UHGV virus genome: UHGV-0265688
Reading direction: 5' to 3' (one strand)
DNA: 45,713 nucleotides
DNA from: a virus
Position numbers and translations under genes: made by a program. The notes under the pieces are model-generated. The model saw nothing but the letters and a program-made list of their open reading frames with translations. It had not been told where the DNA came from and made no database searches. Shown one piece after another: positions 5,956 to 40,107 of this stretch (position 1 is the stretch's first letter; the number at the start of each line of letters is the position of its first letter).

Positions 5956-6006
5956 CTAATCACAAAAGGACAATAAATTGTCTTAATTAGATTGGGAGGT
6001 AATTTT

Positions 6007-6474
6007 ATGGTTCAAGAATATTGCCGGGGAGACATTTTCTTCATCACAGAAGGTACATACACTGGCTCGGAGCAGAGCGGCGGCAGACCCGGTGTTATCG
6101 TCTCGAACGATCTCGGCAACAAGCACTCGCCCAATGTTGAGGTTGTATTCCTCACCTCACGAGAAAAGAAGCCCATGCCGACCCATGTAGAGGTGCTGTG
6201 CAAAGTTCCGTCTACTGCGCTCTGCGAGAACATTCAGACGGTCTCAAAAGAGCGACTGGACACTTTTATCCGCTCTTGCACTACGAGTGAAATGAAGAAC
6301 ATCGACCATGCGCTCCTGTGTTCGCTCGGTCTTCACGCTCCTGCGGCTGTCGGGGGGGGGACTCAGGTTTCCGCTTCTCCTTCGACAGAGGTTTCAAAGG
6401 CCGAAATCGAGCGGGATTTGTTCAAGAATTTGTATGAACAGCTTTTAGACAAAGTGATGGTGAATAAACCTTGA
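6007..6474 (+). CDS. mazF: MazF/PemK/EndoA-family endoribonuclease toxin with ~45-aa C-terminal extension. No adjacent antitoxin.
   Basis: ATG 6007 after GGGAGGTAATTTT. GDIFFI...GSEQSGGRPGVIVSNDLGNKHSPNVEVVFLTS...PTHVEV...IQTVSKERLDTF closely parallels B. subtilis EndoA/NdoA. Extension begins at a G9 tract (6352-6360). Confidence 0.75.
   Translation: MVQEYCRGDIFFITEGTYTGSEQSGGRPGVIVSNDLGNKHSPNVEVVFLTSREKKPMPTHVEVLCKVPSTALCENIQTVSKERLDTFIRSCTTSEMKNIDHALLCSLGLHAPAAVGGGTQVSASPSTEVSKAEIERDLFKNLYEQLLDKVMVNKP
6352..6360 (+). repeat. G9 homopolymer at the junction of the MazF domain and its C-terminal extension
   Basis: ggg ggg ggg encodes GGG in AAVGGGTQ. Long mononucleotide tract. Candidate slipped-strand or sequencing-error hotspot. 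Confidence 0.6.
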
Positions 6475-10241: not shown

Positions 10242-10457
10242 CCTTTTAGGACTGATTGCAGACATCAATCCAACCGAAATTGCGGCACATATCGCAGACG
10301 GAAATCTCGCTGAATGGTGTGAGACTTGGCGGCAGGTAGCGACTGTTGCGGCTGAAAACCTCAAACAATCCGAATAGGATTGAAAAATAATCAAAAACGA
10401 CATTTAGGAAGTAGTCTGGAATGGATTGTCATTTGTCTTTTTGAGAGGTTATGGATG

Positions 10458-10563
10458 AAGTAGTTAAAGTAGTTCAAATCTTGAATTTGCGTAAAAGTCC
10501 TCTATAAGGGGGTCTATATAGTAAAAGTTTACGCAAAAACCGATTTTTAACTACTTTAACTAC
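10458..10563. repeat. Copy A of a ~110-bp palindromic element. Terminal inverted repeats AAGTAGTTAAAGTAGTT / AACTACTTTAACTAC. Inner inverted repeat TTTGCGTAAAAGT / ACTTTTACGCAAAAA around a TATA-rich centre.
   Basis: Near-identical terminal repeats recur at 15009-15117 and 37783-37891. A and C also share the flanking ATAAGAAnAAGAAGAA. Contains a plausible TTGAAT-N16-TATAAG promoter. Confidence 0.7.
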
Positions 10564-10633: not shown

Positions 10634-11236
10634 ATGGCAGTGAAGAAAAACGCCGATGGTGAGAACAAGCCGCAGGTGATTAAGAAGAAGCCGAGGGGCG
10701 GTAACTCCCCTGTGATTGGTATGAATGGGTACGATTTAGAGCCGGGTGATAATACGAAGTATTTGCAAAACTCCATGCACCTGATGAACTTACCCGACAT
10801 TGATTTGCATGATGTGGAGCAAGTGACAAATCGACTGAATGAGTATTTTGAGTTCATGGCTTCCAGTGATATGAAACCTACGGTTTCTGGTATGGCATTG
10901 GCGTTGAACGGTATGAGCAGACGGACTTTGATTGCTATTGTGAACGACTATGCCACTGGTGGGTCTGGATATAAGACTGCGTTGCCGCAGGAAGTGGCAC
11001 TCGTTATTAAAAAAGCCTACAGAATTATGGAGGTTCTGTGGGAGAACTACTCTCAAAACGGCAAGATCAATCCCGTCATGGGTATCTTCCTCGGCAAGAA
11101 CAACTATGGCTATCAGGACAAGACCGAATATGTTGTCACTCCGAATGTTCAGCAGGACAACGACTATGACCCCGACTCTATCAGACAGCGATACCTTATC
11201 GACTCTGACAGCGACTCCGACTCTGACAGCGACTAA
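10634..11236 (+). CDS. terS: Terminase small subunit (Terminase_2 family) with C-terminal (SD)n tail
   Basis: RBS AGAGGAGGTAAAACGACT then ATG. HTH segment SGMALALNGMSRRTLIAIVNDY. PVMGIFLGKNNYGYQDKTEYVV matches the TerS hallmark (..IFLLKNNFGY.DK). DSDSDSDSDSD tail from an 18-bp tandem repeat at 11202-11234. Confidence 0.75.
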   Translation: MAVKKNADGENKPQVIKKKPRGGNSPVIGMNGYDLEPGDNTKYLQNSMHLMNLPDIDLHDVEQVTNRLNEYFEFMASSDMKPTVSGMALALNGMSRRTLIAIVNDYATGGSGYKTALPQEVALVIKKAYRIMEVLWENYSQNGKINPVMGIFLGKNNYGYQDKTEYVVTPNVQQDNDYDPDSIRQRYLIDSDSDSDSDSD

Positions 11237-11306: not shown

Positions 11307-11432
11307 TGGCGGCAGATCGTCCCCCGGTGGAAGTGGAGCCGGTGGAGCGTTGGCGGGTTTTTGGTTTTTCCCTATATAATGTATAGGAGACAATAAACAA
11401 TCCAAAAAAGATAAAATTTTTCTGAAAACCTC

Positions 11433-11461
11433 TTGACAATTCGGAAAAGCTGAATTATACT
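11433..11461 (+). promoter_or_regulatory. sigma70-type promoter TTGACA-N17-TATACT for the cargo operon
   Basis: TTGACA 11433-11438, 17-nt spacer, TATACT 11456-11461. Flanked by AAACAATCC(A/G)AAAAAGAT direct repeats. Homologous to the 5890-5995 promoter region. Confidence 0.55.
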
Positions 11462-11516
11462 ATAATCACAACAGGACAACAAACAATCCGAAAAAGATTG
11501 AACGGAGGTTTTCAAA

Positions 11517-11747
11517 ATGAGAAAATACGAATTGATCCCGGCAGACGGTAGAAAAAGCTTTTACGGGAAAGCGGTTGTAATTGTGGAGGACAACGGGACA
11601 GAAACGCTATACAGCTACGGAACGCCCATTATTAAAAGGCTTGTTTCCGGGGAATTAGTCAAGCTGTGGAGCGATTGGACAGCAACGACAGGCCGACACA
11701 TTAAAGCGTTTTGCGGATTGAGCAAAGCGGAATATATGAGCTTGTAA
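11517..11747 (+). CDS. hypothetical protein
   Basis: RBS AACGGAGGTTTTCAAA then ATG. Composition shifts here (GGG, CGG, CCG codons, A-runs). Confidence 0.45.
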   Translation: MRKYELIPADGRKSFYGKAVVIVEDNGTETLYSYGTPIIKRLVSGELVKLWSDWTATTGRHIKAFCGLSKAEYMSL

Positions 11748-11762
11748 GAGGAGGTAAAAGAA

Positions 11763-12296
11763 ATGTATATCAGCAGAGAAAACGAAAAATTATACTTGCG
11801 TCCGCTTGATTTCAATGTGTGTCGTATTATGACACAATTAGCGGAGATCGTAAAAAACAACGGCGGCAAAGTAAAGCCCATTAGAAACGCCCTTGTGTGT
11901 GATAGGAATTTAGAAAATTCTGAATTTGTGCAAGTGACCCACACAACATATATTACTTTTGTTTGTGATGAAATCGCCTACTATTTTCAAGTTGATCAAA
12001 ACCCGTTTTTCCCGTTCTACTACACCAAGACGCCCGTTAGAAATGGGAAATTTTCAAAAGACGCTTGTCTTGATGAATTTACTAAAAAATGGCTATTTGA
12101 TTGCCTTTTTAGATCAGAAGTACCAGACGCAATTATTAAACAGGCGGCGCAGATTATTTTTGAAGAGCTTATAAAAGCACGATTTTCTATAATTCGCCGG
12201 GATAGTCACCGGGAAAAAGTCGCTAATACATTTTCCCCCGGTTGGCATTGGGAAACGGTGCAAGCACCCGAACGAATGGAAAAAGTAGATTTTTAA
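11763..12296 (+). CDS. hypothetical protein
   Basis: RBS AGAGGAGGTAAAAGAA then ATG. Confidence 0.45.
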   Translation: MYISRENEKLYLRPLDFNVCRIMTQLAEIVKNNGGKVKPIRNALVCDRNLENSEFVQVTHTTYITFVCDEIAYYFQVDQNPFFPFYYTKTPVRNGKFSKDACLDEFTKKWLFDCLFRSEVPDAIIKQAAQIIFEELIKARFSIIRRDSHREKVANTFSPGWHWETVQAPERMEKVDF

Positions 12297-12309
12297 GGGG
12301 GTGCAATAA

Positions 12310-12666
12310 ATGAGGGCTTACACCTTTACTGAAAACGGCTACACATTCAAGCGGATAAACAAGAAACAGGCAAGGCAGGCATATAGCAACGGTTTAACGG
12401 TTCGCTTTTGTCCTTGCAATTTGCGCCCCGGTTCCCCGTTTCGGCTTGATATGGATATAAACAAAATCAATCAGAATTGCGCCGGGGAAACATTCGATAG
12501 CATTGTAAATGCTTTTGAGCAATATAACTGCCGGGACAGTGAAACGGGAAAATATACCGCCTTTTATATACCGGTTGAGACGGTGGACAGGTTCACCGGG
12601 GAAACGCCCACGGCGGGAACATTGGGAACGGTGGAGCAATACGCATATAGCTATATGGAGGGTTAA
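12310..12666 (+). CDS. hypothetical protein
   Basis: RBS AAGGGGGTGCAATAA then ATG. Confidence 0.4.
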   Translation: MRAYTFTENGYTFKRINKKQARQAYSNGLTVRFCPCNLRPGSPFRLDMDINKINQNCAGETFDSIVNAFEQYNCRDSETGKYTAFYIPVETVDRFTGETPTAGTLGTVEQYAYSYMEG

Positions 12667-12669
12667 AAA

Positions 12670-13191
12670 ATGGGTGCAGTGAATTACTTTACAAGCGATT
12701 ATATAACAATGGGCTTGCGTCCTTATGATTCGTTGGAGCTTGAAAACGATTTGGAGTTTATGGAGGAAATGCAAACGCAAGTAAACGAGTACGGCGGCAC
12801 GATTGAAAACGCCATAGCGGAATACATAGAAGATTACTATAACTGCGATTATGAGAACATCAAAACAGAATTAGGCAAGCACAATTTCCATTACTACCAC
12901 ATTACCATAAAGCCGGGATATTATGAGGGCTTTACACTGGATATTGAAAATAATTTCCCGGTTGCGCTGGACAGTTGGGAGGATCGCCGGGACGCAAACA
13001 AGGAAATAACAGAAATAAAGCAATTTTTAATTGCCTGTGCCGGTTTGGGTTTGGTTGAGTGTTCGCCGGGTTGGTGTACAGGCTATAGCGATTACAACGG
13101 CACAATTAAGGCAATCAAAGCGGCAGTAAAGGAAATGCGGGACGAAATGCGCACTATTCCCACATGGGCGCAATATAACCGGGCCTGCTAA
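12670..13191 (+). CDS. hypothetical acidic protein (possible DNA-mimic / anti-restriction-like, unverified)
   Basis: ORF with ATGGAGGGTTAAAAA then ATG. Strongly acidic N-terminal half. No motif recognised confidently. Confidence 0.4.
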   Translation: MGAVNYFTSDYITMGLRPYDSLELENDLEFMEEMQTQVNEYGGTIENAIAEYIEDYYNCDYENIKTELGKHNFHYYHITIKPGYYEGFTLDIENNFPVALDSWEDRRDANKEITEIKQFLIACAGLGLVECSPGWCTGYSDYNGTIKAIKAAVKEMRDEMRTIPTWAQYNRAC

Positions 13192-13208
13192 AAATGGAGG
13201 GTTTGACA

Positions 13209-13502
13209 ATGACAAATTACAATCAGATTGCAACAGACAATCTAAACGCACTTATGAAAGAAATTGCAGAATATACCCGGATGGCTGAGGAGATCGGCGC
13301 AACGCTTGACGGGTTGACAGACAAACTAAAAAAGCACATGGAGGAAAACGGGCTTGAAAGTATCGCCGGGAATGAACACAAGGCCAGTTATAAAGCCGTG
13401 ACAAGTTCCCGAATTGATACAACGGCATTAAAGCGGGATATGCCCGATATTGCCGCAACATATACCAAAACGACAGTTACAAAACGCTTTAGATTCGTGT
13501 AA
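13209..13502 (+). CDS. hypothetical protein
   Basis: ATG 13209 after AATGGAGGGTTTGACA. The track's ATG 13194 is an alternative start. Confidence 0.4.
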   Translation: MTNYNQIATDNLNALMKEIAEYTRMAEEIGATLDGLTDKLKKHMEENGLESIAGNEHKASYKAVTSSRIDTTALKRDMPDIAATYTKTTVTKRFRFV

Positions 13503-13592
13503 GGGGGTTGTTAAAATGGGGCTTGTAATTTTGCTTGTGTTTCCGTTTATGCTGATGGCTGAAATTCTGAAAAGAAATAAATAATACATATA

Positions 13593-13668
13593 CCCCGCCC
13601 AATATAGGCGGGGTTTTTCTACGCCCTCTATAATCGGCCTGTAATGCCCTGTAGAGGGCTTTTTTATT
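13593..13668 (+). terminator. two tandem rho-independent terminators ending the cargo operon
   Basis: CCCCGCCCaatataGGCGGGGTTTTTCT followed by GCCCTCTAtaatcggcctgtaatgccctgTAGAGGGCTTTTTTATT. Confidence 0.65.
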
Positions 13669-13689
13669 ATGGGGGGTGTTCCTATACCC

Positions 13690-13960
13690 GGCTATTATAT
13701 GGGCTTGTGTGGCTTGCTATGGGCTTATATACAAGGGCTTTATATAAGGGGCTTTATATTGTGATCGTTGCTTTATTGTGTGGGCTTGTTATGTTGTGCG
13801 CCTGTGTTCTTGCGTTTCTCTATTATGTTCTTGTGTTATGGGCTTGTGTGTTGTGTTCCTGTGTGCGCTATGGGATAATATAGCGGCTTGCGCTGTCCTG
13901 CATTGTGGGCGGCTTGTTTGGTGTCGTTGGGGTGTCCTCTATTGGGTATTATGATAATGC
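13690..13960. repeat. GT-rich noncoding region with about 7 iteron-like copies of (T)ATGGGCTT(GTGTG/ATATA). Candidate origin or recombinase/terminase binding array.
   Basis: TATGGGCTTGTGTGG, CTATGGGCTTATATA, GGGCTTTATATAA x2, GTGTGGGCTTGTTATG, TTATGGGCTTGTGTG, CTATGGGATAATATAG. The ORFs predicted here (13644-13883, 13888-14139) are low-complexity artefacts. Confidence 0.5.
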
Positions 13961-14164
13961 TATTTTTAGAATTATGTTTTTCTGTTTTGATAGTGCTATC
14001 AAATGGGCGGGGGTTCAATGATAGTGGAGCGGATAGCCCCGGAGGGCATACCCCCGGAGGGGGACAGCGACCCGCCGCACGAGCCGCAGGGAGTGGCTTG
14101 AGTAGCCGAAAAATCGAAAAAGAAACAAAAAGGATATAAAGTTATCTTATAAGTATTGACAACA

Positions 14165-14193
14165 CACTCTGTTATATGATAATATTATCTCAC
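14165..14193 (+). promoter_or_regulatory. sigma70-type promoter TTGACA-N17-ATAATA for the HTH-recombinase pair
   Basis: TTGACA 14165-14170, 17-nt spacer, ATAATA 14188-14193. RBS AAGGAGGA follows. Confidence 0.5.
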
Positions 14194-14215
14194 AAAGATA
14201 AAGGAGGATTTTTCG

Positions 14216-14431
14216 ATGGCAGTTTTGAACGATATTGAAATTGATGTGAAGACCCTGTGTGTGCAGAACCGCACCACTCAGGAGCAAATCGCAAAGGCTG
14301 TTGGCACAACGGGTCAGTATGTCAACCGGGTCATTCACAAAGAGGACGGTCTTATCAATCGCACCTTCATCAACATCATGGAAGCTCTTGGTTACGACAT
14401 CAAACTGACTTATGTTCCACGAGAACCGTAA
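14216..14431 (+). CDS. XRE-family helix-turn-helix DNA-binding protein
   Basis: RBS AAAGGAGGATTTTTCG then ATG. HTH-like TTQEQIAKAVGTTGQYVNRV. Confidence 0.5.
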   Translation: MAVLNDIEIDVKTLCVQNRTTQEQIAKAVGTTGQYVNRVIHKEDGLINRTFINIMEALGYDIKLTYVPREP

Positions 14432-14437
14432 CAGGAG

Positions 14438-15019
14438 GTGAGCCACATGAAGGTGGGGTATGTGCGGGTGAGCACCGTTGAGCAAAACCTTGCCCGGCAG
14501 TTGGAGCTGATGAAGACCCTCGGTGTGGAGAAAATCTACTGTGATAAAATGAGTGGGAAAAACACTGAGCGCACTGAGTTTAAGGAAATGATGGAGTTCC
14601 TGCGGGAGGGTGACACCCTGTATGTGGAGTCCTTCTCCCGGCTTTCCAGAAGCACCCTCGACTTCTTAAACACTGTGAGCAAGTTACAGGCCAAGAGCGT
14701 GAATCTTGTGTCCGACAAGGAAAAGATGGATATGTCCACTCCGCAAGGTAAGTTCATGGTGACGGTGTTTGCCGCACTCTCCGAGCTGGAACGAACCAGT
14801 ATGCTTGAGAGACAGCGGGAGGGAATTGAGATTGCCAAGGCCGAGGGGAAATACAAAGGGCGAAAACCCATTCCCGCCAATGAAAAGTTCTTTGCGGTGG
14901 CAAATGCTTGGGCGGGAGGTAAGATCGCTCTCAAAGACGCAATCCGGGAGTCTGGTATGTCCTCCTCCACTTTCTTTCGCAAATGTAAGCAGTATGAAAT
15001 CAGCAAAAGAAGTAGTTAA
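14438..15019 (+). CDS. Small serine recombinase (resolvase/invertase family, N-terminal catalytic domain plus C-terminal HTH)
   Basis: RBS CAGGAGGTGAGCCAC then ATG. VGYVRVSTVEQ catalytic-Ser motif, SRLSRS, C-terminal HTH. Its TAA stop lies inside the terminal repeat of element B. Confidence 0.75.
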   Translation: MSHMKVGYVRVSTVEQNLARQLELMKTLGVEKIYCDKMSGKNTERTEFKEMMEFLREGDTLYVESFSRLSRSTLDFLNTVSKLQAKSVNLVSDKEKMDMSTPQGKFMVTVFAALSELERTSMLERQREGIEIAKAEGKYKGRKPIPANEKFFAVANAWAGGKIALKDAIRESGMSSSTFFRKCKQYEISKRSS

Positions 15020-15117
15020 AGTAGCGGAAAATCAGGTTTTGCGTGTAACTTCCTCTTAGTATGTGCATATATAGCAAAAGTTTACGGAAAAATTGAAAAA
15101 CAACTACTTTAACTACT
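15009..15117. repeat. Copy B of the ~110-bp palindromic element (GAAGTAGTTAAAGTAG ... AACTACTTTAACTACTT)
   Basis: Same 15-17-bp terminal inverted repeats and inner TTTGCGT / ACGGAAAAA arms as copies A and C. Interior more diverged. Overlaps the recombinase stop codon. Confidence 0.7.
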
Positions 15118-15135
15118 TGATGGGAGGGAAACGCC

Positions 15136-15711
15136 ATGGGGCGATACGATAATTTTCACAACACCAAGAATATTGAAAAGGCGCAGAAAAAGCTCGACAA
15201 GCTCATGAGCAAGCGAAAGCCCGACCAGTATCAAATTGATCTGGCAAGGGAAGCTCTCGACAATGCGAAATTGTTTGAAAGCTGTCAGATTTTTAAGAGC
15301 TTCAACGGTCGTGCGCCGAATGAGAACATCATGTTTAGTGACGATAACCGAGTGATATGGTTCATCAAGTATCTCATTCCCTATGACGAAATCACTTCGT
15401 ATTCTATCGTGGAGAATGTGGTACAAAAAGCTCAAACCCAGACCAAGAGCAAAGGCGTTATCTCACGAGCTATCATCGGAGGAGCGATTGCAGGTGGGGT
15501 TGGTGCGGTCGTTGGGGCGGCTTCTGCGGGGTCACAGTCTCAAACAACCTACTACACCGAGGGCGAAGGATTCTTCCTGCAAATTTTCACCAAGGGCGGA
15601 GACCGATATAGCTGTCATATCGAAAGTGACGGTTTTATTTCAAACAAAGTACACCCGAAATGGCTTGAGCTTGGAACGAAGTTGCAATCCATCATTGACG
15701 GGAAGGTGTAA
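15136..15711 (+). CDS. hypothetical protein with Gly/Ala-rich hydrophobic segment (AIIGGAIAGGVGAVVGAASAG)
   Basis: RBS GGGAGGGAAACGCC then ATG. Sits between element B and terL. Confidence 0.45.
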   Translation: MGRYDNFHNTKNIEKAQKKLDKLMSKRKPDQYQIDLAREALDNAKLFESCQIFKSFNGRAPNENIMFSDDNRVIWFIKYLIPYDEITSYSIVENVVQKAQTQTKSKGVISRAIIGGAIAGGVGAVVGAASAGSQSQTTYYTEGEGFFLQIFTKGGDRYSCHIESDGFISNKVHPKWLELGTKLQSIIDGKV

Positions 15712-15787: not shown

Positions 15788-17428
15788 ATGCGAAAGTTAC
15801 TTGAGACAATTTTTGAAAAAATCAAAAAGAGCCATGAGTACCAGTCTATGGAAGACCTGTACTACATGAGCAAGGAAGCCATGAAAACCGACAACGGTCT
15901 TGGTGTAGAGTTTTTGAAACTCCTCTCTGCTGAGTGTGAGAGAGTCATGCGTGACAGGTCTATATCCGGGGAACAGGTGCGGCTGGTTTATGATTTGCAC
16001 AGGCGAGTTTGTCTTACTGCCGCTCCTTACGATTTTGACTGCTATCTGCTCTATGTGGAATGGAACCGGGAGCCCGACAAGAAGTTTTACCCTCCCCGCC
16101 GTAAGGTTTTGAAGCAGGTGGTGGACGCTCTGCAAGAGCTGGCAGACGATAAGCTGGATTTGTTGGCGGTCTCTCTCCCACCGGGCGCAGGAAAAACCAC
16201 TTTGGCTATCTTCTACCTCACATGGCTCGGCGGGAAAATCCCCAATGACCCAATGTTGACCGGCTCGCACTCCAACAGCTTTGTACGAGGGGTGTACGAT
16301 GAATGTCTGCGCATATTTGACCGCAACGGAGATTATCTGTGGCACGATGTTTTTCCCGACATCAAAGTGTCCAACACCAACGCCAAAGACTGCCGCATTG
16401 ACCTTGACAAGAGACAGCGTTTTGAGACCTTGGAGTTCACCTCCATCGGAACCGGCAATGCTGGTCTGTATCGTGCGGCTACTCTGCTCTACTGTGACGA
16501 TCTGGTGTCGGGTATTGAAGTCGCATTGTCAAAAGAGCGTCTGGATAAGCTGTGGGAAACCTATACCACTGACCTTCGACAGCGTAAAATCGGAGACCAC
16601 TGTAAGGAGCTTCACATTGCAACCCGTTGGTCTGTCCACGATGTCATTGGTCGGCTTGAGCGGGAGTATATCGACAGTGACCGGGCAAAATTCATTGTGA
16701 TTCCCGCTCTTGATGAAAACGATGAATCCAATTTTGACTACGCTTATGGCGTGGGGTTCAACACAACATTTTACCATGAGCAGAGGAACATCATGGACGA
16801 TGTGAGCTGGCGAGCACTGTATATGAACGAGCCGATTGAGCGTGAGGGCTTGGTTTATGCACAAGACGAGCTTCGCCGTTACTTCGAGTTGCCGAAGGAA
16901 GACCCTGACGCAATCATCGGTATCTGCGACACCAAGGACAAAGGAGCGGACTACGCTTTCCTGCCGGTGGCGTATGTGTATGGGCAGGATTATTATATTG
17001 ACGATTGCGTGTGCGACAATGGGCTACCCAACATCGTGGACGCTCGGCTGACGGAAATCCTTGTGCGAGACAAGGTGAAATCCTGCCGGTTTGAGTCTAA
17101 TTCCGCTGGGCGGCGGGTCGCTGAGAAGATACAGGAGGAAGTGAAGAAAAAAGGCGGTATCACGCACATCACTACCAAATTTACCACCGCCAACAAGGAA
17201 ACGAAAATCATCGTAAACAGCGCATGGGTCAAGGAACACTGCCTGTTCAAAGACGCTTCTCTCTACCAGCGGAAGTCAGACTACGGCAAGATGATGGATA
17301 TGCTCTGCTCTTACACAATGGCTGGTAAGAATAAGCATGATGATGTTCCCGATGGAATGGCAATGCTGGCTGAATATGCCCAAAGCCTGAGCGGACAAAA
17401 GGTGGAAGTTTTCAAACGACCTTGGTAA
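15788..17428 (+). CDS. terL: Terminase large subunit
   Basis: RBS TTGGAGGTATT then ATG. Walker A LPPGAGKTTLAI. C-terminal nuclease-like region. 546 aa. Confidence 0.8.
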   Translation: MRKLLETIFEKIKKSHEYQSMEDLYYMSKEAMKTDNGLGVEFLKLLSAECERVMRDRSISGEQVRLVYDLHRRVCLTAAPYDFDCYLLYVEWNREPDKKFYPPRRKVLKQVVDALQELADDKLDLLAVSLPPGAGKTTLAIFYLTWLGGKIPNDPMLTGSHSNSFVRGVYDECLRIFDRNGDYLWHDVFPDIKVSNTNAKDCRIDLDKRQRFETLEFTSIGTGNAGLYRAATLLYCDDLVSGIEVALSKERLDKLWETYTTDLRQRKIGDHCKELHIATRWSVHDVIGRLEREYIDSDRAKFIVIPALDENDESNFDYAYGVGFNTTFYHEQRNIMDDVSWRALYMNEPIEREGLVYAQDELRRYFELPKEDPDAIIGICDTKDKGADYAFLPVAYVYGQDYYIDDCVCDNGLPNIVDARLTEILVRDKVKSCRFESNSAGRRVAEKIQEEVKKKGGITHITTKFTTANKETKIIVNSAWVKEHCLFKDASLYQRKSDYGKMMDMLCSYTMAGKNKHDDVPDGMAMLAEYAQSLSGQKVEVFKRPW

Positions 17429-31845: not shown

Positions 31846-33780
31846 ATGAGCTGGGCAGAAGCAAAATGGGTGGTAGATAATATCCTGCAAAAGACAGGAC
31901 AGGCACCCAACAACATGAGAGCGTTTACCGCTTTCGCAAAATCCAGCACCACCATTGGGCTGAGATTTCTGGAACCCGAAGACAGCTATGACAGCGTAGG
32001 TAATCTGCTCTGTTCGGTCGGCGGCGTAATGATTCGCATGGGTGAAGATGGCTACCCCGCCAGCACCACCGAAGGTACGCTGGTTATCGACAACAAAGAG
32101 CTTGGAAAATATGCAACCGAGGAGTACACCGTGAGCGGTCTGACCGAGGGGAAGACCTACTACTTCTCCGCTTTCCCGTATTCCTCTCAGGGCGTGTACA
32201 ACCTGTCAAGCAATGAGAAAAACCGGGCGAGTGCCGCTCCTGCCGATGGGGAAACGGCAAATGTCACCATCAACATTGACGATGACAGCGCATTTAACAG
32301 CGTCACAATCACCTGTGTGGACGAGACGGACGGGCAGTACACCAAGACCGCCACTCTCACCAAGACGCAGAAAAAGGCTTCTTTCACCGTCCCCATCGGA
32401 CACACCTATCACATCGAGTACGGTGCGGAGGACGGGTATTCCAAGCCTGAGAACACCGAAGTCAAGGTGTCTGTGGCGGGTGCTGTATCGAACTATGAAG
32501 CAACCTACTACTATTTTACCGCCACCATTGATGTCACCTACCCGGCAGGAGCGACCTGTACCTGCTCCCTCGATAGCACGACCTATACCGCAACCGGCAC
32601 CAGCGGCAGGTATCAGTTCAAGGTACACAAGGTCGGCACATGGACTGTGAAAGCGACCAGCGGCGGCGAGTCCGCTTCCGAGCAGGTTGTGATTACATCG
32701 GATGGGCAGAGCGAAACGGTGGAGCTGTCTTTTGTGAAAATCTTCGGTATCAGCCGGGATATTAAAGCGTCCTCCCCTGTGTGGGCGAGAACCGACATGG
32801 CAGTGGGCATGACCGCCACCGCTTCTATCGGCACAAACGCAGGTCACAGCGATTTCGATGATGTCATGCCTTGGAAGGGCATGGTGCGGGAAACCCTCTC
32901 TACCAACGATGTGATGGTGAAAATCCCGAAATTCTACTACCGCCGCTATCGTGAGGGGACGGTTGAGCACATTCAGATCGCAGACAAGCCTACGGCTGGT
33001 TTCTCGGTACACCCCCTGTTCAATCACGCAGGTCGGGAGTGCGACCATGCCTATGTGGGTGCGTACAAGACTTCCAGCAACAATAAATCCGTCTCCGGGG
33101 CAAGTCCGCAAGCGTCACAGACAAGAGCCACTTTCCGCAGTAACGCCAAGGCGAAGGGCGCAGGATGGAGCCTGATTGACATTGCGGCGGTGTCTGCCAT
33201 TCAAATGCTCATGCTGGTGGAGTTTGCAAACAACAATGTGCAGAGCGTTATTGGCAGAGGATATTGTGACGGAAGCAGCGGCTCGCTGAGAACCGGGTCT
33301 TGCAACAGCGTTCCCAACCTCACCGGCAGACCTTCTGGCACAGACGGTAAGACCGGAGTTGTCTACAGAGGTATCGAGGACTTCTGGGGCAATGTATGGG
33401 AATGGGTCGATGGCGTGAACTGGAACGGCGGCACTTACTACATCTGCAACGACCCTTCCAAGTACGCTGACGATACTGCAACCGGCTACACTCAGCTTTC
33501 CTTCAAGGGAGCGACAAACTGGGGTAGCTCCTATATCACCGAGGAGGGTCTGGACACCGGGGCAAATCCCCATGTCATGCTTCCTTCTGCGGCTGGTAGC
33601 GGCAGTGAGTCCACTTATATGTGTGACGCTTGTTGGAGTAGCACAGGATGGCGGGTGTTCCGGCACGGCGGTTATTGGGTTAATGGGTTGGAGTGCGGTC
33701 TGTTTACGGCTGATTTGTACTACACTTCGTCTGATTCCGGCGCGCGCGTTGGCTCTCGCCTGCTTTATATCCCCTCCTGA
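31846..33780 (+). CDS. Tail fiber / receptor-binding protein with C-terminal C-type-lectin / FGE-sulfatase-like domain. This is the target gene of the diversity-generating retroelement (DGR).
   Basis: ATG overlaps the upstream stop (TAAATGAG). C-terminal RGIEDFWGNVWEWVDG is the FGE/CLec-fold signature, the fold used by DGR variable proteins such as Bordetella phage Mtd. The last ~40 codons are the variable repeat. Confidence 0.7.
   Translation: MSWAEAKWVVDNILQKTGQAPNNMRAFTAFAKSSTTIGLRFLEPEDSYDSVGNLLCSVGGVMIRMGEDGYPASTTEGTLVIDNKELGKYATEEYTVSGLTEGKTYYFSAFPYSSQGVYNLSSNEKNRASAAPADGETANVTINIDDDSAFNSVTITCVDETDGQYTKTATLTKTQKKASFTVPIGHTYHIEYGAEDGYSKPENTEVKVSVAGAVSNYEATYYYFTATIDVTYPAGATCTCSLDSTTYTATGTSGRYQFKVHKVGTWTVKATSGGESASEQVVITSDGQSETVELSFVKIFGISRDIKASSPVWARTDMAVGMTATASIGTNAGHSDFDDVMPWKGMVRETLSTNDVMVKIPKFYYRRYREGTVEHIQIADKPTAGFSVHPLFNHAGRECDHAYVGAYKTSSNNKSVSGASPQASQTRATFRSNAKAKGAGWSLIDIAAVSAIQMLMLVEFANNNVQSVIGRGYCDGSSGSLRTGSCNSVPNLTGRPSGTDGKTGVVYRGIEDFWGNVWEWVDGVNWNGGTYYICNDPSKYADDTATGYTQLSFKGATNWGSSYITEEGLDTGANPHVMLPSAAGSGSESTYMCDACWSSTGWRVFRHGGYWVNGLECGLFTADLYYTSSDSGARVGSRLLYIPS
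33647..33766 (+). repeat. DGR variable repeat (VR) at the 3' end of the tail fiber gene
   Basis: Gap-free ~120-bp alignment to 33861-33980 (offset 214). 22 mismatches lie at TR adenine positions; 1 mismatch is not at an A. Confidence 0.8.
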
Positions 33781-33785
33781 GGGGG

Positions 33786-33808
33786 TGTGGGGGATTTCCT
33801 CCCCCACA
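33786..33808 (+). other. GC-rich hairpin immediately downstream of VR (TGTGGGGGA-tttcc-TCCCCCACA)
   Basis: Perfect 9-bp stem 6 nt after the tail-fiber stop. DGR target sites commonly carry such a hairpin/cruciform downstream of the initiation-of-mutagenic-homing region. Confidence 0.55.
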
Positions 33809-33860
33809 TAAGTGGGCGAACACACCGTATTGAAAATCGAAACACGCTAAGGCGAACAGT

Positions 33861-33980
33861 AAAAGCGAGTGTTCCAACACGGCAGTAATTGGAATAATGG
33901 GTCGAAATGCGGTCTGTTTACGGCTAATTTGAACAACACTTCGTCTGATTCCAACACGAACATTGGCTCTCGCCTACTTT
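33861..33980 (+). repeat. DGR template repeat (TR), noncoding, A-rich (AAC-codon-phased) copy of the VR
   Basis: See VR. TR has A where VR has G/T/C at 22 positions (for example CCAACACGAACATT versus CCGGCGCGCGCGTT). Lies between the target gene and the reverse transcriptase. Confidence 0.8.
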
Positions 33981-34095
33981 TGTTAAAAGGTAATATCATT
34001 GGTCGCTGTTTCGCCGTACCCATTGGTAAAAAATAGTTTGGAGGGACAGGGTTAGTAGGTTCACTCTCGAAAACCCTGTAAGAAACAAAAAGCAG

Positions 34096-35193
34096 ATGAA
34101 AAGGTTTGGATTCCTCTATGAACGGATAGTTTCAGTGGAAAATTGCAGACTGGCTATCCTCAACGCTTCTCAAAAGAAGAAAAAGCGAAAAATGGTGAAA
34201 GAAGTCCTTGATAATTTGGAGCATTACGCCAACGACCTTTCCGAGCGAATGAGCCGCATGGATTTTCTCTCCCCATATAAGACCCGTATCATCAAGGACG
34301 GGTTATCTGGAAAAGAACGGGAACTGCAAGTCCCAGCGTTCTACCCCGACCAGTGCGCACACCACGCCATTATGCAGATTCTCAAGCCGATTATTGAGAA
34401 ATCGTCCTACCGATGGAGTTGCGCCAATATCCCCAACCGGGGCATTGACCTTGCTTGCAAGGGTGTGGAGAGAGCCACTGTGCGGGACAGGAAACACGCT
34501 AAATATTGCGTGAAAATGGACATTAGCAAGTTCTACCCGTCTATTCCTCATGGCAAGCTGAAAGCCCGACTGCGAGAGAAAATCAAAGACGAAAAGGCTT
34601 TGCAAATCATCTTCAAGGTGATTGACTCCCACAATCCGGGGCTTCCCATCGGGAACTATACTTCCCCTTGGCTGGCAGAACTATACTTGCAACCGCTGGA
34701 TTACCTTATCAAGCAAAAGCACCGAATACGACACTATATCCGCTACGCTGACGATCTGGTGCTGATAGACAGCAATAAACGAAAACTGAGGAAAGCTCTT
34801 CACGACATTTTCCTATTTGTGGAGGAGCTGGGCATGACAGTGAAACACGACTACCAGTTGTTTCGTATTCAGCCATACTGCAAGGAACGGACAGGCCGCA
34901 GGGGACGGAAGATAGATTTTGTAGGGAGGTGTTTCGGAATTGGTTTTACCACCATCCGAAAGAGGAGGGCGTTGGCACTTATGCGGCAGAGCAGGTTTAT
35001 TCAGAAGCTACAGCGGCAGAACCGGCCTGTCTCATACAGAATGGCTTCCGGGTTTCTCTCCCGGTGCGCCTGTTTCAAGCACACCAATTCATACGCCATG
35101 AAGAAAAAGTACTATGAAACGGTCAACATCAAAAAGTTAAAGGAGGTTGTTAGCAATGAGAGTAAGAGGAAATGTCTCGCCCAACTCGCTTAG
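34096..35193 (+). CDS. DGR-type reverse transcriptase
   Basis: N-terminus FLYERIVSVENCRLAILNASQKKKKRK typical of DGR RTs. Motifs QVPAFYPDQ, SPWLAELYL (SP.LAN-like), catalytic YADD (IRYADDLVLI). Confidence 0.8.
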   Translation: MKRFGFLYERIVSVENCRLAILNASQKKKKRKMVKEVLDNLEHYANDLSERMSRMDFLSPYKTRIIKDGLSGKERELQVPAFYPDQCAHHAIMQILKPIIEKSSYRWSCANIPNRGIDLACKGVERATVRDRKHAKYCVKMDISKFYPSIPHGKLKARLREKIKDEKALQIIFKVIDSHNPGLPIGNYTSPWLAELYLQPLDYLIKQKHRIRHYIRYADDLVLIDSNKRKLRKALHDIFLFVEELGMTVKHDYQLFRIQPYCKERTGRRGRKIDFVGRCFGIGFTTIRKRRALALMRQSRFIQKLQRQNRPVSYRMASGFLSRCACFKHTNSYAMKKKYYETVNIKKLKEVVSNESKRKCLAQLA

Positions 35194-37493: not shown

Positions 37494-37788
37494 CCTTACC
37501 CCTATCATCACCGCAGTTCTGACCCTCATTTTCTCGCTGATTACCGCTTTCCTCATTCCCTATATCAAGACCAAGGTGAGTGCGGAACAATTCGCCACCA
37601 TCAAGCTGTGGGTGCAGGTCGCTGTACAGGCGGCAGAAATGCTCTATGTCGGTAGCGGCAGAGGAGAGGAAAAGAAGAAATATGTGATTGAGTTTCTGAA
37701 CAGCAAGGGGTTCACGCTGAACGCAGAGGAGATTGAAAACCTCATTGAATCCGCTGTCTTGGAGCTGAAACAGTCGCAGGTAAAGTAG
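37486..37788 (+). CDS. Holin, LL-H family
   Basis: RBS ACAAGGAGGATATTACA then ATG. N-terminal TM helix AVLTLIFSLITAFLIPYIK followed by LWVQVAVQAAEMLYVGSGRGEEKKKYV, typical of the LL-H holin family. TAG stop lies inside element C. Confidence 0.6.
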   Translation: MVDLTPIITAVLTLIFSLITAFLIPYIKTKVSAEQFATIKLWVQVAVQAAEMLYVGSGRGEEKKKYVIEFLNSKGFTLNAEEIENLIESAVLELKQSQVK

Positions 37789-37891
37789 TTAAAGTAGTTC
37801 AAAATCGGTTTTTGCGTAAACTTTCTCTATATACACGCGTACTATGCAAAAGTTACACGCAAAAACCAAAGAACAACTACTTTAACTACTT
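37783..37891. repeat. Copy C of the ~110-bp palindromic element, between the lysis module and the serine integrase gene. Candidate attP.
   Basis: AAGTAGTTAAAGTAGTTC ... GAACAACTACTTTAACTACTT with inner TTTTTGCGTAAAC / TTACACGCAAAAA and a central CTCTATATACACGCGTACTATGC. Followed by ATAAGAACAAGAAGAA as in copy A. Confidence 0.7.
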
Positions 37892-37927: not shown

Positions 37928-37958
37928 AGAGGAGGTGGGCGTTTAACCTACCTCCTCT
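37928..37958. terminator. bidirectional hairpin terminator (AGAGGAGGTgggcgtttaACCTACCTCCTCT) overlapping the integrase stop codon
   Basis: 9-bp GC-rich stem. T-rich on the minus strand beyond it (GTTTTGTTTGTAAATTATT). Confidence 0.5.
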
Positions 37959-39490
37959 ATATTCATAACAAACCCGAAACAGTGTTTTACAAAAAACAAG
38001 GTGTTCGGATTTGCACCTTTTGGTGGAGCCACACACGCTATATCCGAACACGAAAGTGTAGCTGTATTCTGTCCTGACATATTGAAGGTAAATACGATTC
38101 TTCTCCCCTTATCCCCATCGTCATAGATATATACGGAGTTCACCAGTGTGTCTATCACTCTGCGTCTGTACTCAATATCATTCACATTACCACTCTTGAA
38201 CGAATTGAGCCAGTGCATTATGCGCTCTTTCGTCAGGAGTGGTTTTTTCATTTCCTCACGAGCAATCTTCCCCTCCAAGTCGTTCTTCTCAGCTTCCAGC
38301 TCGTCCATTCGTTCCTTGGTGGTGGGTGTGATTATCCCCTGTTCGATGGCGTTCATGAGGTTTTTTATTTTCTTCTTAATGTCTTTCAGCTCGTTTTGAA
38401 GTCCGTTGAGGTAAGAGGTGTCAGCCGACTCCTTTTCGATAATCTCCATGGTCTTTCTGGCAATACGCTCTATGGTTTCATCATTCAATACATTTTGAAC
38501 GGTGAACCGCACCACCAGCTCCTCTATCCAATCCTTTTTCTCCACCGCCTTTTTGCACTTGTGATTTCGCTTACGGTCAATGCACTTGTAGTAGTGGTGG
38601 AGCTTGCCCGATCTGGAAGTGCCGCTTTCTCCGACCATGGAGGAGCCGCAATGACCGCAGAACAATTTTGTGGTGAGAAGATAATCGTCTTTAGCCTTAT
38701 TCCTCGCACGAGCCGAATAGTTGTGCCTGAGAGTGGCTTGGACTTTCTCAAATAACTCCCGGCTTATGATAGGCGGCACACCGTCCTCTACCACAACATC
38801 TGCGAAACGGTAGACCCCGATATACCTGTCGTTTTTCAGCATTGTGCGCAGACTGTTTTTGTTAAAGGCGTTCCCTCGTGAGGTTTTATACCCTCGTCTG
38901 TTGCACTCGTTGATAATCTGAGTTGCCGACATACCATCTGCATACATCTGAAAGATTTCTTGTACAATTTTCGCCCCAACGGGGTCGATTTTATACTTTC
39001 TATCTTCCCCTACAGTGTAGCCCAAGGGCATACCTGCCCCTCCTACGGCAAGGCACTGTAGGGCATTTTCTTTTAATCCTCGCTTGATGTTCCGGGACAG
39101 GTTCTCTGAATAGTATTCTGCGTACCCTTCCAGCACTGATTCCAGGATAATCCCTTCCGGGGTATCAGGCATGGGCTGTTTGGCGTAATAGACTTTCACG
39201 CCATTCTTTTTCAGCTTTGCTTTGTAAATAGCTGAATCATATCGGTTTCGGGCAAAGCGGTCAAGGGTGTACATTATCACCGCTTCAAATTGCCCCTTTT
39301 CACTGTCCTTTATGAGCCTTTGAAAGTTTGGACGATTATCGGTTTTACCTGAGATTGCTCTGTCGCAATATTCACCGATGATCGTCATTCCATTTTTCAG
39401 TGCAAAGTCGTGACACTCACGGAGCTGTCCCTCTATGGATTCCTCTCTCTGGTTATGGCTCGAATATCTGGCATAGATTACCGCTTTCGT
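37943..39490 (-). CDS. Large serine recombinase (phage integrase). No canonical start codon upstream of the catalytic serine.
   Basis: Minus-strand frame reads ...TTKAVIYARYSSHNQREESIEGQLRECHDFALKNGMTIIGEYCDRAISG then recombinase domain and a zinc ribbon (CGHCG...YYKC) with coiled-coil. The track starts at ATG 39388, downstream of the YARYSS active site. RBS GGAGGTGAT at 39493-39501. Codons between it and YAR are ACT ACG AAA GCG GTA ATC, with an in-frame TAA at 39512-39514. Confidence 0.65.
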   Translation of the reverse strand, partial: TKAVIYARYSSHNQREESIEGQLRECHDFALKNGMTIIGEYCDRAISGKTDNRPNFQRLIKDSEKGQFEAVIMYTLDRFARNRYDSAIYKAKLKKNGVKVYYAKQPMPDTPEGIILESVLEGYAEYYSENLSRNIKRGLKENALQCLAVGGAGMPLGYTVGEDRKYKIDPVGAKIVQEIFQMYADGMSATQIINECNRRGYKTSRGNAFNKNSLRTMLKNDRYIGVYRFADVVVEDGVPPIISRELFEKVQATLRHNYSARARNKAKDDYLLTTKLFCGHCGSSMVGESGTSRSGKLHHYYKCIDRKRNHKCKKAVEKKDWIEELVVRFTVQNVLNDETIERIARKTMEIIEKESADTSYLNGLQNELKDIKKKIKNLMNAIEQGIITPTTKERMDELEAEKNDLEGKIAREEMKKPLLTKERIMHWLNSFKSGNVNDIEYRRRVIDTLVNSVYIYDDGDKGRRIVFTFNMSGQNTATLSCSDIACVAPPKGANPNTLFFVKHCFGFVMNIEEVG

Positions 39491-39901: not shown

Positions 39902-39952
39902 AACGATTCTCCTTTCACAAATTTTAATTCTGATTTTTTTGAATTTATCTAT

Positions 39953-40107
39953 TGACAATTCGTGAAAGAAGAACTATAATAAGACCAAGAAGTTCGGGAT
40001 TTACGAATTGGCAATAAGAAACCGACCCCCTTGAAAGTGGCAATTTCGAGGAGGAGCGAGGATTGAGTAGTCCTATAAGAATAATAACATCAATTCGCTT
40101 TGTTGTC
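39953..40107 (+). promoter_or_regulatory. Genetic switch region: perfect sigma70 promoter TTGACA-N17-TATAAT (39953-39981) with three CAATTCG-containing operator half-sites
   Basis: ACAATTCGTG at 39957, CGAATTGG (inverted) at ~40006, TCAATTCGCT at ~40097. CAATTCGT / ACGAATTG form an inverted repeat pair spanning the promoter. Confidence 0.55.

Follow-up and report, generated by a model that had tools for sequence, protein, structure and literature searches.

A fixed interval of variable genes and a conserved regulator-recombinase unit between terS and terL in a family of gut Clostridia prophages

Results

The interval between terS and terL

This analysis concerns the interval between the genes for the small and large terminase subunits, terS and terL, in the UHGV virus genome UHGV-0265688. 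The window, by which we mean the whole stretch of DNA analysed (45,713 nucleotides, nt), resembles a complete temperate siphophage genome of 45.7 kb, and its source phage is a gut Clostridia prophage. From terS to terL the interval holds a terminator-like hairpin, a promoter, the cargo genes c1 to c4, the gene c5 and a micro open reading frame (micro-ORF), two terminators, about 500 nt of non-coding DNA reaching to a second promoter, an operon of a helix-turn-helix (HTH) gene and a small serine recombinase gene, the palindromic element B and the gene g191 (Table 1). A related element, A, stands before terS and a third, C, beside the integrase gene. A sequence-only reading that preceded this work had described 4.5 kb separating terS from terL with a terminator, a promoter at 11433, two terminators and a second promoter, and all of these were located. 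It had also placed an HTH gene and a resolvase-family recombinase ending in element B at the far side of the block, and the recombinase stop codon indeed lies inside B. The assignment of terS is a weak one drawn from profile matches; its identity among relatives ranges from 51 to 98%.

Table 1. Positions of the features of the interval, its flanking genes and the palindromic elements in the window (aa, amino acids)
Feature	Position	Strand	Description and evidence
Element A, palindromic, ~110 bp	10458-10563		Upstream of terS (70 nt); repeat families; position conserved in relatives
terS, small terminase subunit (weak assignment)	10634-11236	+	Pfam GP3_package 3.6e-6 (under its cut-off); PHROG 606 6.9e-5
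Terminator-like hairpin 3' of terS, weak	11338-11354	+	
Cargo-operon promoter, sigma-70-type	11433-11461	+	TTGACA-17-TATACT, 11/12 matches
c1, 76 aa	11517-11747	+	PHROG 4264 8.6e-13; Pfam DUF8033 (precomputed) in same-position 76-aa gene of relatives
c2, 177 aa	11763-12296	+	No family match; lowest GC of the block, 0.384
c3, 118 aa	12310-12666	+	No family match; presence variable
c4, 173 aa	12670-13191	+	Acidic: isoelectric point (pI) 4.43, net charge -16
c5, small protein, near-universal	13194-13502	+	PHROG 6244 6.4e-16; 820 homologues
22-aa hydrophobic micro-ORF (MGLVILLVFPFMLMAEILKRNK)	13516-13584	+	Own ribosome-binding site; conserved across distant relatives
Two strong tandem intrinsic terminators closing cargo operon	13592-13614 and 13646-13659	+	Both hairpins kept in relatives
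G+T-rich stretch with loose GGGCTT repeats	13660-13930	+	Lineage-specific
Candidate res/operator array	13944-14030		TGATAR-NN-YTATCA palindromes: 13952-13965, perfect copy 13988-14001, half-site 14019-14024
Two tandem C-run/GGA/G-run hairpins	14036-14063	+	Second, CCCCCGGAGGGGG at 14051-14063, is the family-wide C5-G5 palindrome
Hairpin showing conserved purine loop (G)GGAGGGAGT	14082-14098	+	
A-tract run, then GATA..TATC inverted repeat beside -35 box, operator-like	14109-14146		Conserved in alignments
HTH-recombinase operon promoter, consensus	14156-14185	+	TTGACA invariant among relatives
Small Xre-type HTH protein, 71 aa	14216-14431	+	Pfam HTH_3 1e-3 (weak); PHROG 1373
Small serine recombinase, 193 aa, resolvase/invertase family	14438-15019	+	Pfam Resolvase 5e-40; PHROG 125 1e-60
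Element B, palindromic	15010-15118		Overlaps recombinase stop codon
g191, 191 aa, glycine-zipper segment, variable accessory gene	15136-15711	+	PHROG 888
terL, large terminase subunit	15788-17428	+	PHROG 38 1.5e-61
Element C, palindromic	37783-37891		Between last late gene and 3' end of integrase gene
int, large serine integrase	37943-39388	minus	

Conservation among related phages

Relatives were collected as 80 IMG/VR contigs found by terL (78-97% identity), to which others were added by using the integrase, c5 and the element pattern as queries. Among them, 73 loci carry both terS and terL, with terL about 48-97% identical to that of the window. Roseburia, Faecalibacterium, Dorea ammoniilytica, Criibacterium bergeronii and Oscillospiraceae are the hosts named in the genome records. 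The interval is present, collinear and in the same place in all 73 loci, and its common order is terS, variable cargo, c5, the 22-aa micro-ORF, two terminators, a G+T-rich non-coding stretch and then a conserved core, followed by the HTH gene, the small serine recombinase gene and terL. Every one of these blocks has a serine recombinase gene; a single block lacks the HTH gene (72 of 73) and three lack c5 (70 of 73). The genes c1 to c4 and g191 are present or absent in a mosaic pattern, as expected of accessory genes that are horizontally exchanged. Nucleotide similarity to the window was found, among the 80 relatives, in 6 for c2, 7 for c4 and 8-10 for the G+T-rich array, and in 42-52 for the HTH gene, 39-48 for the recombinase gene and 54 for element B. 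The blocks of homology between relatives tend to start or stop at the edges of the palindromic elements.

The sequence-only reading had taken the block for an insertion between terS and terL, and had proposed to look for its presence or absence in related phages. This comparison speaks against an insertion, since the block is carried by all 73 relatives and no empty site, in which the left side of A would be joined to the right side of B, was found among IMG/VR or metagenome contigs of the Joint Genome Institute (JGI). Likewise, no inverted or deleted arrangement of the block was seen in the 73 blocks or in the IMG/VR and JGI metagenome contigs. A recently inserted island would be expected to show inverted terminal elements, an internal recombinase and polymorphism of presence; the first two are found here, as A, B and the recombinase gene, and the third is absent. 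No consistent target-site duplication is visible in the aligned flanks of the elements. Being present and collinear throughout, with no empty site, the block is best regarded as an old and fixed part of the phage family in which only the cargo turns over. What stood of the view that it is a self-contained accessory island is the promoter and terminators of its own, the varying gene content and the bounding repeats; what fell is the reading as an inserted island or mini-replicon.

Composition

A check of GC content and tetranucleotide usage over 11.4-14.2 kb, suggested by the sequence-only reading, bore out that this part of the window is atypical. The segment 11401-14200 is the most deviant of 215 sliding 2.8-kb segments by tetranucleotide distance (z 3.75 strand-specific, 4.59 symmetrised), with a GC content of 0.426 against a mean of 0.489. 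GC at third codon positions is low in the cargo genes, down to 0.36 in c2, and about 0.60 in the core genes, and the composition of the HTH and recombinase genes resembles that of the rest of the phage. The deviant stretch had been described as rich in GGG, CGG, CCG and A runs. Per kb, GGG (25.0 versus 13.9) and AAAAA (6.8 versus 2.6) are clearly raised relative to the comparison DNA, CGG is raised slightly (22.1 versus 17.0), but CCG is not enriched (14.3 versus 14.9).

Cargo genes

The five genes from c1 to c5 had been called unrecognisable. This holds for Pfam, NCBIfam and PADLOC, in which none of the window's own five proteins has a match, but c1 and c5 match PHROG families and c1 is also connected to DUF8033. 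The gene c1 occurs in part of the relatives only. The product of c4, as had been noted, is strongly acidic and might, as was also suggested there, be a DNA mimic or an anti-defence protein; it matches no family, has 603 homologues, none of them named or with a Pfam domain, and its AlphaFold model is unusable, with a predicted local distance difference test score (pLDDT) of 47.7. Beyond element B, between it and terL, g191 is replaced elsewhere by other genes, for example one for a lipoprotein, and the same-position 191-aa gene of relatives carries the precomputed Pfam domain PH_gly_zipper.

Filtering of the variable ORFs of the interval left 76 clusters (75 aa or longer), for which Pfam and PADLOC matches are almost absent. 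Representative ORFs, 59 in number, were scanned, five from the window and the rest from related phages. The few Pfam exceptions are DUF4352/DUF5067 lipoprotein domains, YwiC and a few weak matches, and the PADLOC defence models gave a single weak match to LmuB (3.6e-4). As no known defence or anti-defence family is found in this set, a description of the cargo as conflict genes is by analogy only. The layout also differs from that of anti-CRISPR/Aca operons, since two terminators and about 600 nt lie between the cargo and the HTH gene, which has its own promoter.

The cargo promoter region (11430-11462) resembles the early rightward promoter beside the repressor gene (39949-39981; 79% identity over 33 nt), and both regions contain TTGACAATTCG. 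Because of this resemblance the cargo operon may share the control of the repressor. A short palindrome, CAATCCGAAnAGGATTG, is found at 10366-10382, just before element A, and again at 11484-11500 in the c1 leader; it was discarded, as it is present in few lineages.

The gene c5 probably starts at 13209, which gives a protein of 97 aa. Its profile resembles the C-terminal part of the RecE-like PHROG 434 (2.2e-10), which is probably the reason for the label endonuclease that it carries in the sources. In the AlphaFold model a long N-terminal helix, residues 4-46, is predicted with a pLDDT of about 90, and nothing else is confident. Sequence searches of the PDB with c5 and with the HTH protein returned nothing significant. 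The peptide of the micro-ORF shows, in the alignment of relatives, a hydrophobic run followed by the pattern FPF..L.E.LK.

The non-coding region

The non-coding DNA at 13660-14150 consists of two parts of different character. The G+T content is 66% over 13660-14130, and the AT skew reaches -0.40 in the segment 13501-14000. In the first part, seven plus-strand copies of GGGCTT lie within 190 nt (13656-13845), about 40-fold over the rest of the strand. They are unevenly spaced, at 14-58 nt, the repeated cores measure 6-9 nt, and the one true tandem is a 14-nt unit present 2.7 times. CCCCGGAGGG is present twice, at 14033-14061. The GT-rich repeat array of the sequence-only reading is thus confirmed as to its G+T richness, the seven GGGCTT copies and the doubled CCCCGGAGGG, with the qualification that the spacing is irregular. 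GGGCTT is also common over the window as a whole, with 60 copies against 22.9 expected from shuffled sequence (none of 100 shuffles reached 60), about two thirds of them on the plus strand, outside the array too.

The G+T-rich stretch is near identical in the closest relatives, and for this reason a hypervariable array differing between strains was rejected. Similar sequence is found in only 8-10 of the 80 relatives, while a G+T content of 0.60-0.75 is retained in most lineages although the sequence varies. The array had been proposed to consist of iterons, with 13.5-15.1 kb as the origin of a mini-replicon with its own resolution system. Short repeated motifs do stand beside an A-tract region and GC-rich palindromes, and a resolvase beside a replication origin is common on plasmids. 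Iteron origins, however, have regular direct repeats of 17-22 bp and DnaA boxes, and of their usual features an A-tract run is what is present here. No ORF between 11.5 and 15.7 kb has a Rep-like match in Pfam, PHROGs or NCBIfam, and no DnaA box within one mismatch lies in 13.5-14.2 kb; on these two grounds the iterons are rejected. The short cores and single partial tandem also count against them, as do the lineage-specific occurrence of the array next to conserved genes and the presence of the phage's primase and D5-type helicase module 5-9 kb upstream of the proposed origin. We therefore rate an iteron origin as very improbable, and the best reading of the G+T-rich array is a fast-evolving spacer.

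The second part, 13944-14150, is conserved even where terL of the relatives is about 64% identical. It opens with the candidate res/operator array, which has the half-site consensus CTATTGAYAGCG, and TGAYAG half-sites recur at fixed offsets of -55 and -32 from the C5-G5 palindrome. The number of TGAYAG sites follows the type of recombinase in the same phage, with a mean of 2.9 beside the 193-aa recombinase and 0.6 beside a 254-aa type described below. The perfect site TGATAGNNCTATCA occurs as a single copy in the whole window, and no second, inverted copy was found there. The C5-G5 palindrome is present in 91% of the relatives, with either recombinase type.

Further downstream, the hairpin with the purine loop has a stem whose sequence varies by lineage yet remains complementary, and its GGGAGGGAGT loop is invariant. 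Permuted partners give a mean helix length of 4.80 where the real stem gives 5.48 (0 of 2000 permutations), in a test that does not correct for shared ancestry. The covariation shows up only when G.U pairing is allowed for the plus strand (z 3.7 versus 0.5), and hence suggests an RNA read from that strand. It can accordingly be proposed that the conserved region acts mainly as RNA, by its C5-G5 hairpin and by a hairpin displaying the Shine-Dalgarno-like GGGAGGGAG loop. Such an RNA might signal processing or antitermination where late transcription reads through, or serve as a decoy for a factor that binds GGA or Shine-Dalgarno sequences, and an untranslated stretch so rich in G+T would offer Rho no sites to load. 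The position within a one-directional series of genes, through which transcription must pass to reach terL, is in favour of this proposal, together with the covarying stem, the wide occurrence of the C-run/G-run hairpin and a G+T skew that is conserved where the sequence is not. The GGA loop of the first hairpin, however, gives way to a loop-less palindrome in some lineages, and RNAalifold supports the C5-G5 stem only. Moreover, over 10.3-15.3 kb nothing in Rfam reached gathering score (the best weak matches being anti-hemB at E = 0.16 and CsrB at E = 0.62), and no promoter was found between the terminators and the non-coding region. With the ancestry problem of the permutation test added to these, we consider a mainly RNA-based function unlikely, if compatible with the explanation favoured below.

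Contig ends of the relatives are over-represented in and just 3' of the G+T-rich region. Among 133 loci with the HTH gene, 37 have less than 1.5 kb upstream of it, and about a dozen end within 300 nt. The region was considered as a physical end of the genome and rejected, as these ends scatter 33-300 nt upstream of the HTH gene. Sharing no single position, they suggest breakage during assembly.

The HTH protein and the serine recombinase

The recombinase has the N-terminal catalytic domain with a serine nucleophile motif (PF00239) of the small serine recombinases. The Pfam Resolvase match spans residues 6-139, and its GYVRVST aligns with that of Gin and Bin3. After the catalytic domain come residues 146-193, a stretch of the length expected for a C-terminal HTH domain of about 45 aa; the PHROG 125 match extends over residues 2-191, and no separate HTH model scored in this part. 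The closest solved structures are Gin (8.5e-25), Bin3/Sin (1e-24) and the gamma-delta resolvase (7.6e-21). Half of the relatives carry instead a different recombinase of 254 aa with a Recombinase domain, and the two types share 27-30% identity. The features that would mark an invertase are not seen, since there is one perfect candidate site, the arrangement has one orientation in all 73 loci, and public contigs contain no inversion joints.

Small serine recombinase genes immediately 5' of the terminase genes also occur in unrelated phages, namely Clostridium perfringens phage CP51 (NC_021325.1), Clostridioides difficile phage phiSemix9P1 (KX905163.1) and two uncultured gut phages, MT835537.1 and MT839459.1. 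None of these four has the palindromic elements or the conserved core.

The palindromic elements A, B and C

In the relatives, 267 copies of the element were found almost exclusively at three positions, namely before terS, beside the HTH/recombinase pair and at the junction of the late genes with the integrase gene. Each copy reads AAGTAGTnAAAGTAG, 12-13 nt, TTTTGCG and a variable centre, after which the arm returns as its mirror image; the outer AAGTAGTnAAAGTAG and the inner TTTTGCG are invariant. The spacers in the arms confer polarity, and in most lineages A is inverted relative to B and C, so that the block is bounded by inverted repeats. The elements fold well (z -4.5 to -8.7). They were nevertheless rejected as RNA or DNA hairpins, as their variable positions lack excess complementarity between the arms, some being below chance, and RNAalifold keeps the invariant termini only. 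Given this lack of compensatory change, the elements are read as putative arrays of protein-binding motifs. Neither the elements nor the structured non-coding core are in Rfam, and no description of them was found in the literature searched.

Other roles of the elements were examined and set aside. Sites similar to Hix were sought inside the arms, and a resemblance was seen in one arm type only and is not conserved. Element C does not appear to be attP, because many prophage contigs match residues 1-456 of the integrase only and continue in other DNA (from about 38020), which puts the crossover 130-230 nt away from C, within the 3' end of int; with the crossover seemingly there, integration would change the C-terminus of the integrase. 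A role as host-spreading miniature inverted-repeat transposable elements (MITEs) is not supported, since in Firmicutes genomes the elements are confined to prophages of this phage family. The search with the element pattern also returned loci from Bacteroidales (L269, L278, L280, L283 and L289) and from a metagenome-assembled genome of Nitrospinia (L284), with inverted arrays of the 9-mer AAGTAGTNA repeated 2-5 times per side; in L283 and L289 these are intergenic, between ordinary chromosomal genes. Lacking the inner TTTTGCG, they are apparently a separate repeat family.

Two contigs join the elements in new ways. In L304 (CDZH01048099.1, 5246-5365) the 3' end of the recombinase gene is connected through a C-type element to the integrase 3' end and the right flank of C. 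This amounts to an exact deletion between B and C that removes every late gene, and its crossover falls within the 15-nt terminus common to the two elements. In L229 the element at 1116-1228 is a hybrid whose left arm is of the B type and whose centre and right arm are of the A type; the HTH gene is on one side of it and terS on the other, and the context is seen over 1.4 kb of a 6.8-kb contig. Other contigs appear to be reduced phages. A 15.9-kb IMG/VR contig, L154, looks like a mini element of ~14 kb that holds int, rep, the repressor gene, terS, cargo, the HTH gene, element B, the alternative recombinase gene, a 5' fragment of terL and element C, without structural genes; int sequence at both of its ends suggests that it may be a circle. 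In L264, terL and part of the portal gene are kept beside element C, and L021 and L107 apparently have no replication module.

These joints bear on the reading that comes nearest to the sequence-only one, in which the segment from A to B would be a discrete recombination cassette and the serine recombinase, or some other site-specific system, would act at A, B and C. Whole modules could then be inverted, excised or exchanged, and the shedding of the late genes would leave a satellite-like mini-prophage with terS. The inverted bounding repeats agree with a cassette, and so do the breaks of homology at the element edges and the fact that copy B always adjoins a serine recombinase gene and copy C the integrase gene, in addition to the L304 joint, the L229 hybrid and the L154 mini element. 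On the other hand, all 73 loci are collinear, and neither IMG/VR nor JGI metagenomes contain A/B inversion or deletion joints. The consensus of the elements is identical with both recombinase types, despite their low identity to each other, whereas the motifs of the sites ahead of the HTH gene differ from one type to the other. In addition, an L029-type lineage has the recombinase without copy B. From the shared consensus and this lineage, the elements are unlikely to be sites of the recombinase. The deletion derivatives L154 and L264, furthermore, end 127-244 nt from C and not inside it. L304 and L229 are single observations that may be assembly chimeras or ordinary prophage decay, although L304 could also be a genuine mini-prophage, and they keep a role of this type alive. 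Taken together, we regard the cassette as quite improbable.

A more specific form of this idea is that A, B and C are polar recombination sites of a phage-borne cassette system which yields satellite mini-prophages packaged by intact relatives. Because terS lies in an A-B cassette of its own, apart from terL, recombination between B and C would give mini-prophages that retain the integrase, the regulatory genes, terS and the cargo and lack structural genes, and L304, L229 and L154 are compatible with such a system. We give it a small probability.

Alternatively, the non-coding region or the elements could be the packaging site, pac, bound by TerS, with repeats and A-tracts building a bent nucleoprotein complex in the manner of pacL and pacR of SPP1. 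The location between terS and terL, the phased A-tracts and the repeated boxes would suit a pac site. Element A, moreover, lies 70 nt upstream of terS and has two pairs of binding motifs around a variable centre, and the HTH segment of TerS is among the better-conserved parts of the protein. TerS identity, however, falls to 51% where the element termini are identical and the arrays similar, three copies of the element would imply three pac sites, and the scattered contig ends upstream of the HTH gene have no common terminus. For these reasons a pac site here seems improbable.

Discussion

A proposed permanent slot with exchangeable cargo and a conserved core

The explanation that we favour is that the interval combines a family-wide accessory hotspot with a conserved unit of HTH gene and resolvase, which has one res-like site close to the packaging genes, and we think it has about an even chance of being right. 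The terS-terL interval would be a permanent slot in these temperate Clostridia phages and would have two parts. The hotspot would comprise c1 to c4 and, beyond element B, g191, accessory genes of atypical composition that have their own sigma-70-type promoter, end at two terminators and are swapped between lineages. By analogy with other phages, the cargo likely serves the lysogen or conflicts between phages or between phage and host. The core unit would consist of c5, the 22-aa micro-peptide, presumably in the membrane, the non-coding region, the HTH regulator and the small serine recombinase.

From the correspondence of site motif and recombinase type we infer that the recombinase acts on the single res-like TGAYAG array just upstream of its own operon. 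Recombination would take place between two copies of the phage genome, as in concatemers, dimers or terminally redundant ends, so that phage DNA would be resolved or circularised beside the packaging genes, and no segment would be flipped or moved within one genome. This step of resolution or circularisation is tentative, and we hold it to be doubtful. The HTH protein may repress its own operon by way of the GATA..TATC repeat beside the -35 box. As for elements A, B and C, they could be protein-bound borders of the early, terS-block, late and lysogeny modules and occasional points of crossover; they are most likely transcriptional or regulatory boundary sites. No late-gene activator or sigma factor was recognised among the small early ORFs upstream of A.

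Several points weigh against this explanation. It is built entirely on sequence comparison, and the sequence fails to separate resolvase from invertase, since Gin, Sin and the gamma-delta resolvase score alike. The upstream members of the proposed site array are degenerate in the window itself, and it could be the HTH protein, not the recombinase, that recognises the TGAYAG sites. Neither the RNA hairpin nor the conserved G+T skew is accounted for by the explanation. The inverted bounding copies and the joints in L304 and L229 fit a cassette mechanism better than passive boundaries, and PADLOC detected no known defence or anti-defence family in the 59 cargo ORFs, so that a role in conflict is an analogy.

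Relation to known systems

Hyper-variable hotspots of accessory genes are established in P2-like phages and P4-like satellites (PMC9122126), and such hotspots have been catalogued by annotation tools (bioRxiv 10.1101/2024.10.15.618418). The interval resembles them in its fixed position, conserved flanks and varying content, in having its own promoter and terminators, and in its atypical composition. It is unusual for a hotspot in that it splits the terminase genes, is joined to a near-universal core of c5, the HTH gene, the recombinase gene and the non-coding region, and has at its borders palindromic elements of 110 bp for which no earlier description was found; unlike known hotspots, it also yielded no known defence or anti-defence family. 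Small serine recombinases have been reported as markers of accessory and defence loci, with their role left open (RADS study, PMC13552941). As in those loci, a resolvase/invertase-type recombinase of ~190 aa stands beside variable accessory genes on a mobile element. Here, in contrast, the recombinase is fixed in the core layout of the phage beside the terminase genes, and its neighbours match no PADLOC model.

With the res modules of Tn3/gamma-delta, Sin and beta the recombinase shares a homologous catalytic domain (E 1e-24 to 8e-21). The arrangement is likewise similar, with one array of inverted half-sites per genome, in varied spacings, upstream of the recombinase operon and overlapping its control region. 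It differs by an extra HTH gene between array and recombinase, by the half-site motif and spacings, by the substitution of the 254-aa recombinase in half of the relatives, and in that the sites described here are putative. The Hin/Gin/Cin invertases are close by family, DNA invertase being the nearest PHROG (1e-60) and Gin the nearest solved structure. Unlike in those systems, there is no second, inverted candidate site and no invertible tail-fibre segment, and host-range variation would come from a diversity-generating retroelement instead.

Phage P1 has the Cre recombinase and its lox site near pac, which circularise terminally redundant DNA and resolve dimers. The resemblance lies in a single-site recombinase module beside packaging functions in a temperate phage with a separate lysogeny system. 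Cre, however, is a tyrosine recombinase, and circularisation in the present phages is a conjecture.

Elements A, B and C are similar to attC sites, to Correia and MITE-type elements and to the boundary sequences of phages in that they are imperfect palindromes, of ~110 bp, whose ends are conserved while the centre varies, and in that they border exchangeable sets of genes. They differ from the attC sites of integrons by the lack of compensatory changes and of a tyrosine integron integrase, and from MITEs by their low number, two or three in each genome, by their fixed orthologous positions and by the absence of spread in host genomes.

If the explanation is correct, an abundant family of gut Clostridia prophages keeps a slot for dozens of small proteins inside its packaging module, and this slot would be a compact place to seek new genes for lysogen benefit, defence or counter-defence. 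The recurrence of a recombinase gene next to the terminase genes in other clostridial phages suggests a link of such enzymes to DNA packaging or genome topology that has gone unrecognised. The elements and the structured non-coding core, in turn, offer testable handles on the insulation or exchange of modules in these phages.

Other features of the genome

Megablast of the window against GenBank phages gave no match, and the closest cultured match of terL is that of Clostridium phage Maintenon (41% identity). The window also encodes a repressor-like protein, a replication module (primase and D5-type helicase) and a RecE-like exonuclease. A homologue of the MazF-like growth inhibitors is located within the replication module (5992-6474; PHROG 1936, 6.5e-35). 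Downstream of terL follow an SPP1-type portal gene, structural genes and the diversity-generating retroelement (31846-35193). The variable repeat of the latter, 33651-33766, lies at the 3' end of a 644-aa ORF and is 83% identical to the template repeat at 33865-33980. An RNA of the Rfam RT-18/RT-17 type scores above the gathering threshold at 34012-34099, and the 365-aa ORF that follows, 34096-35193, is probably the reverse transcriptase.

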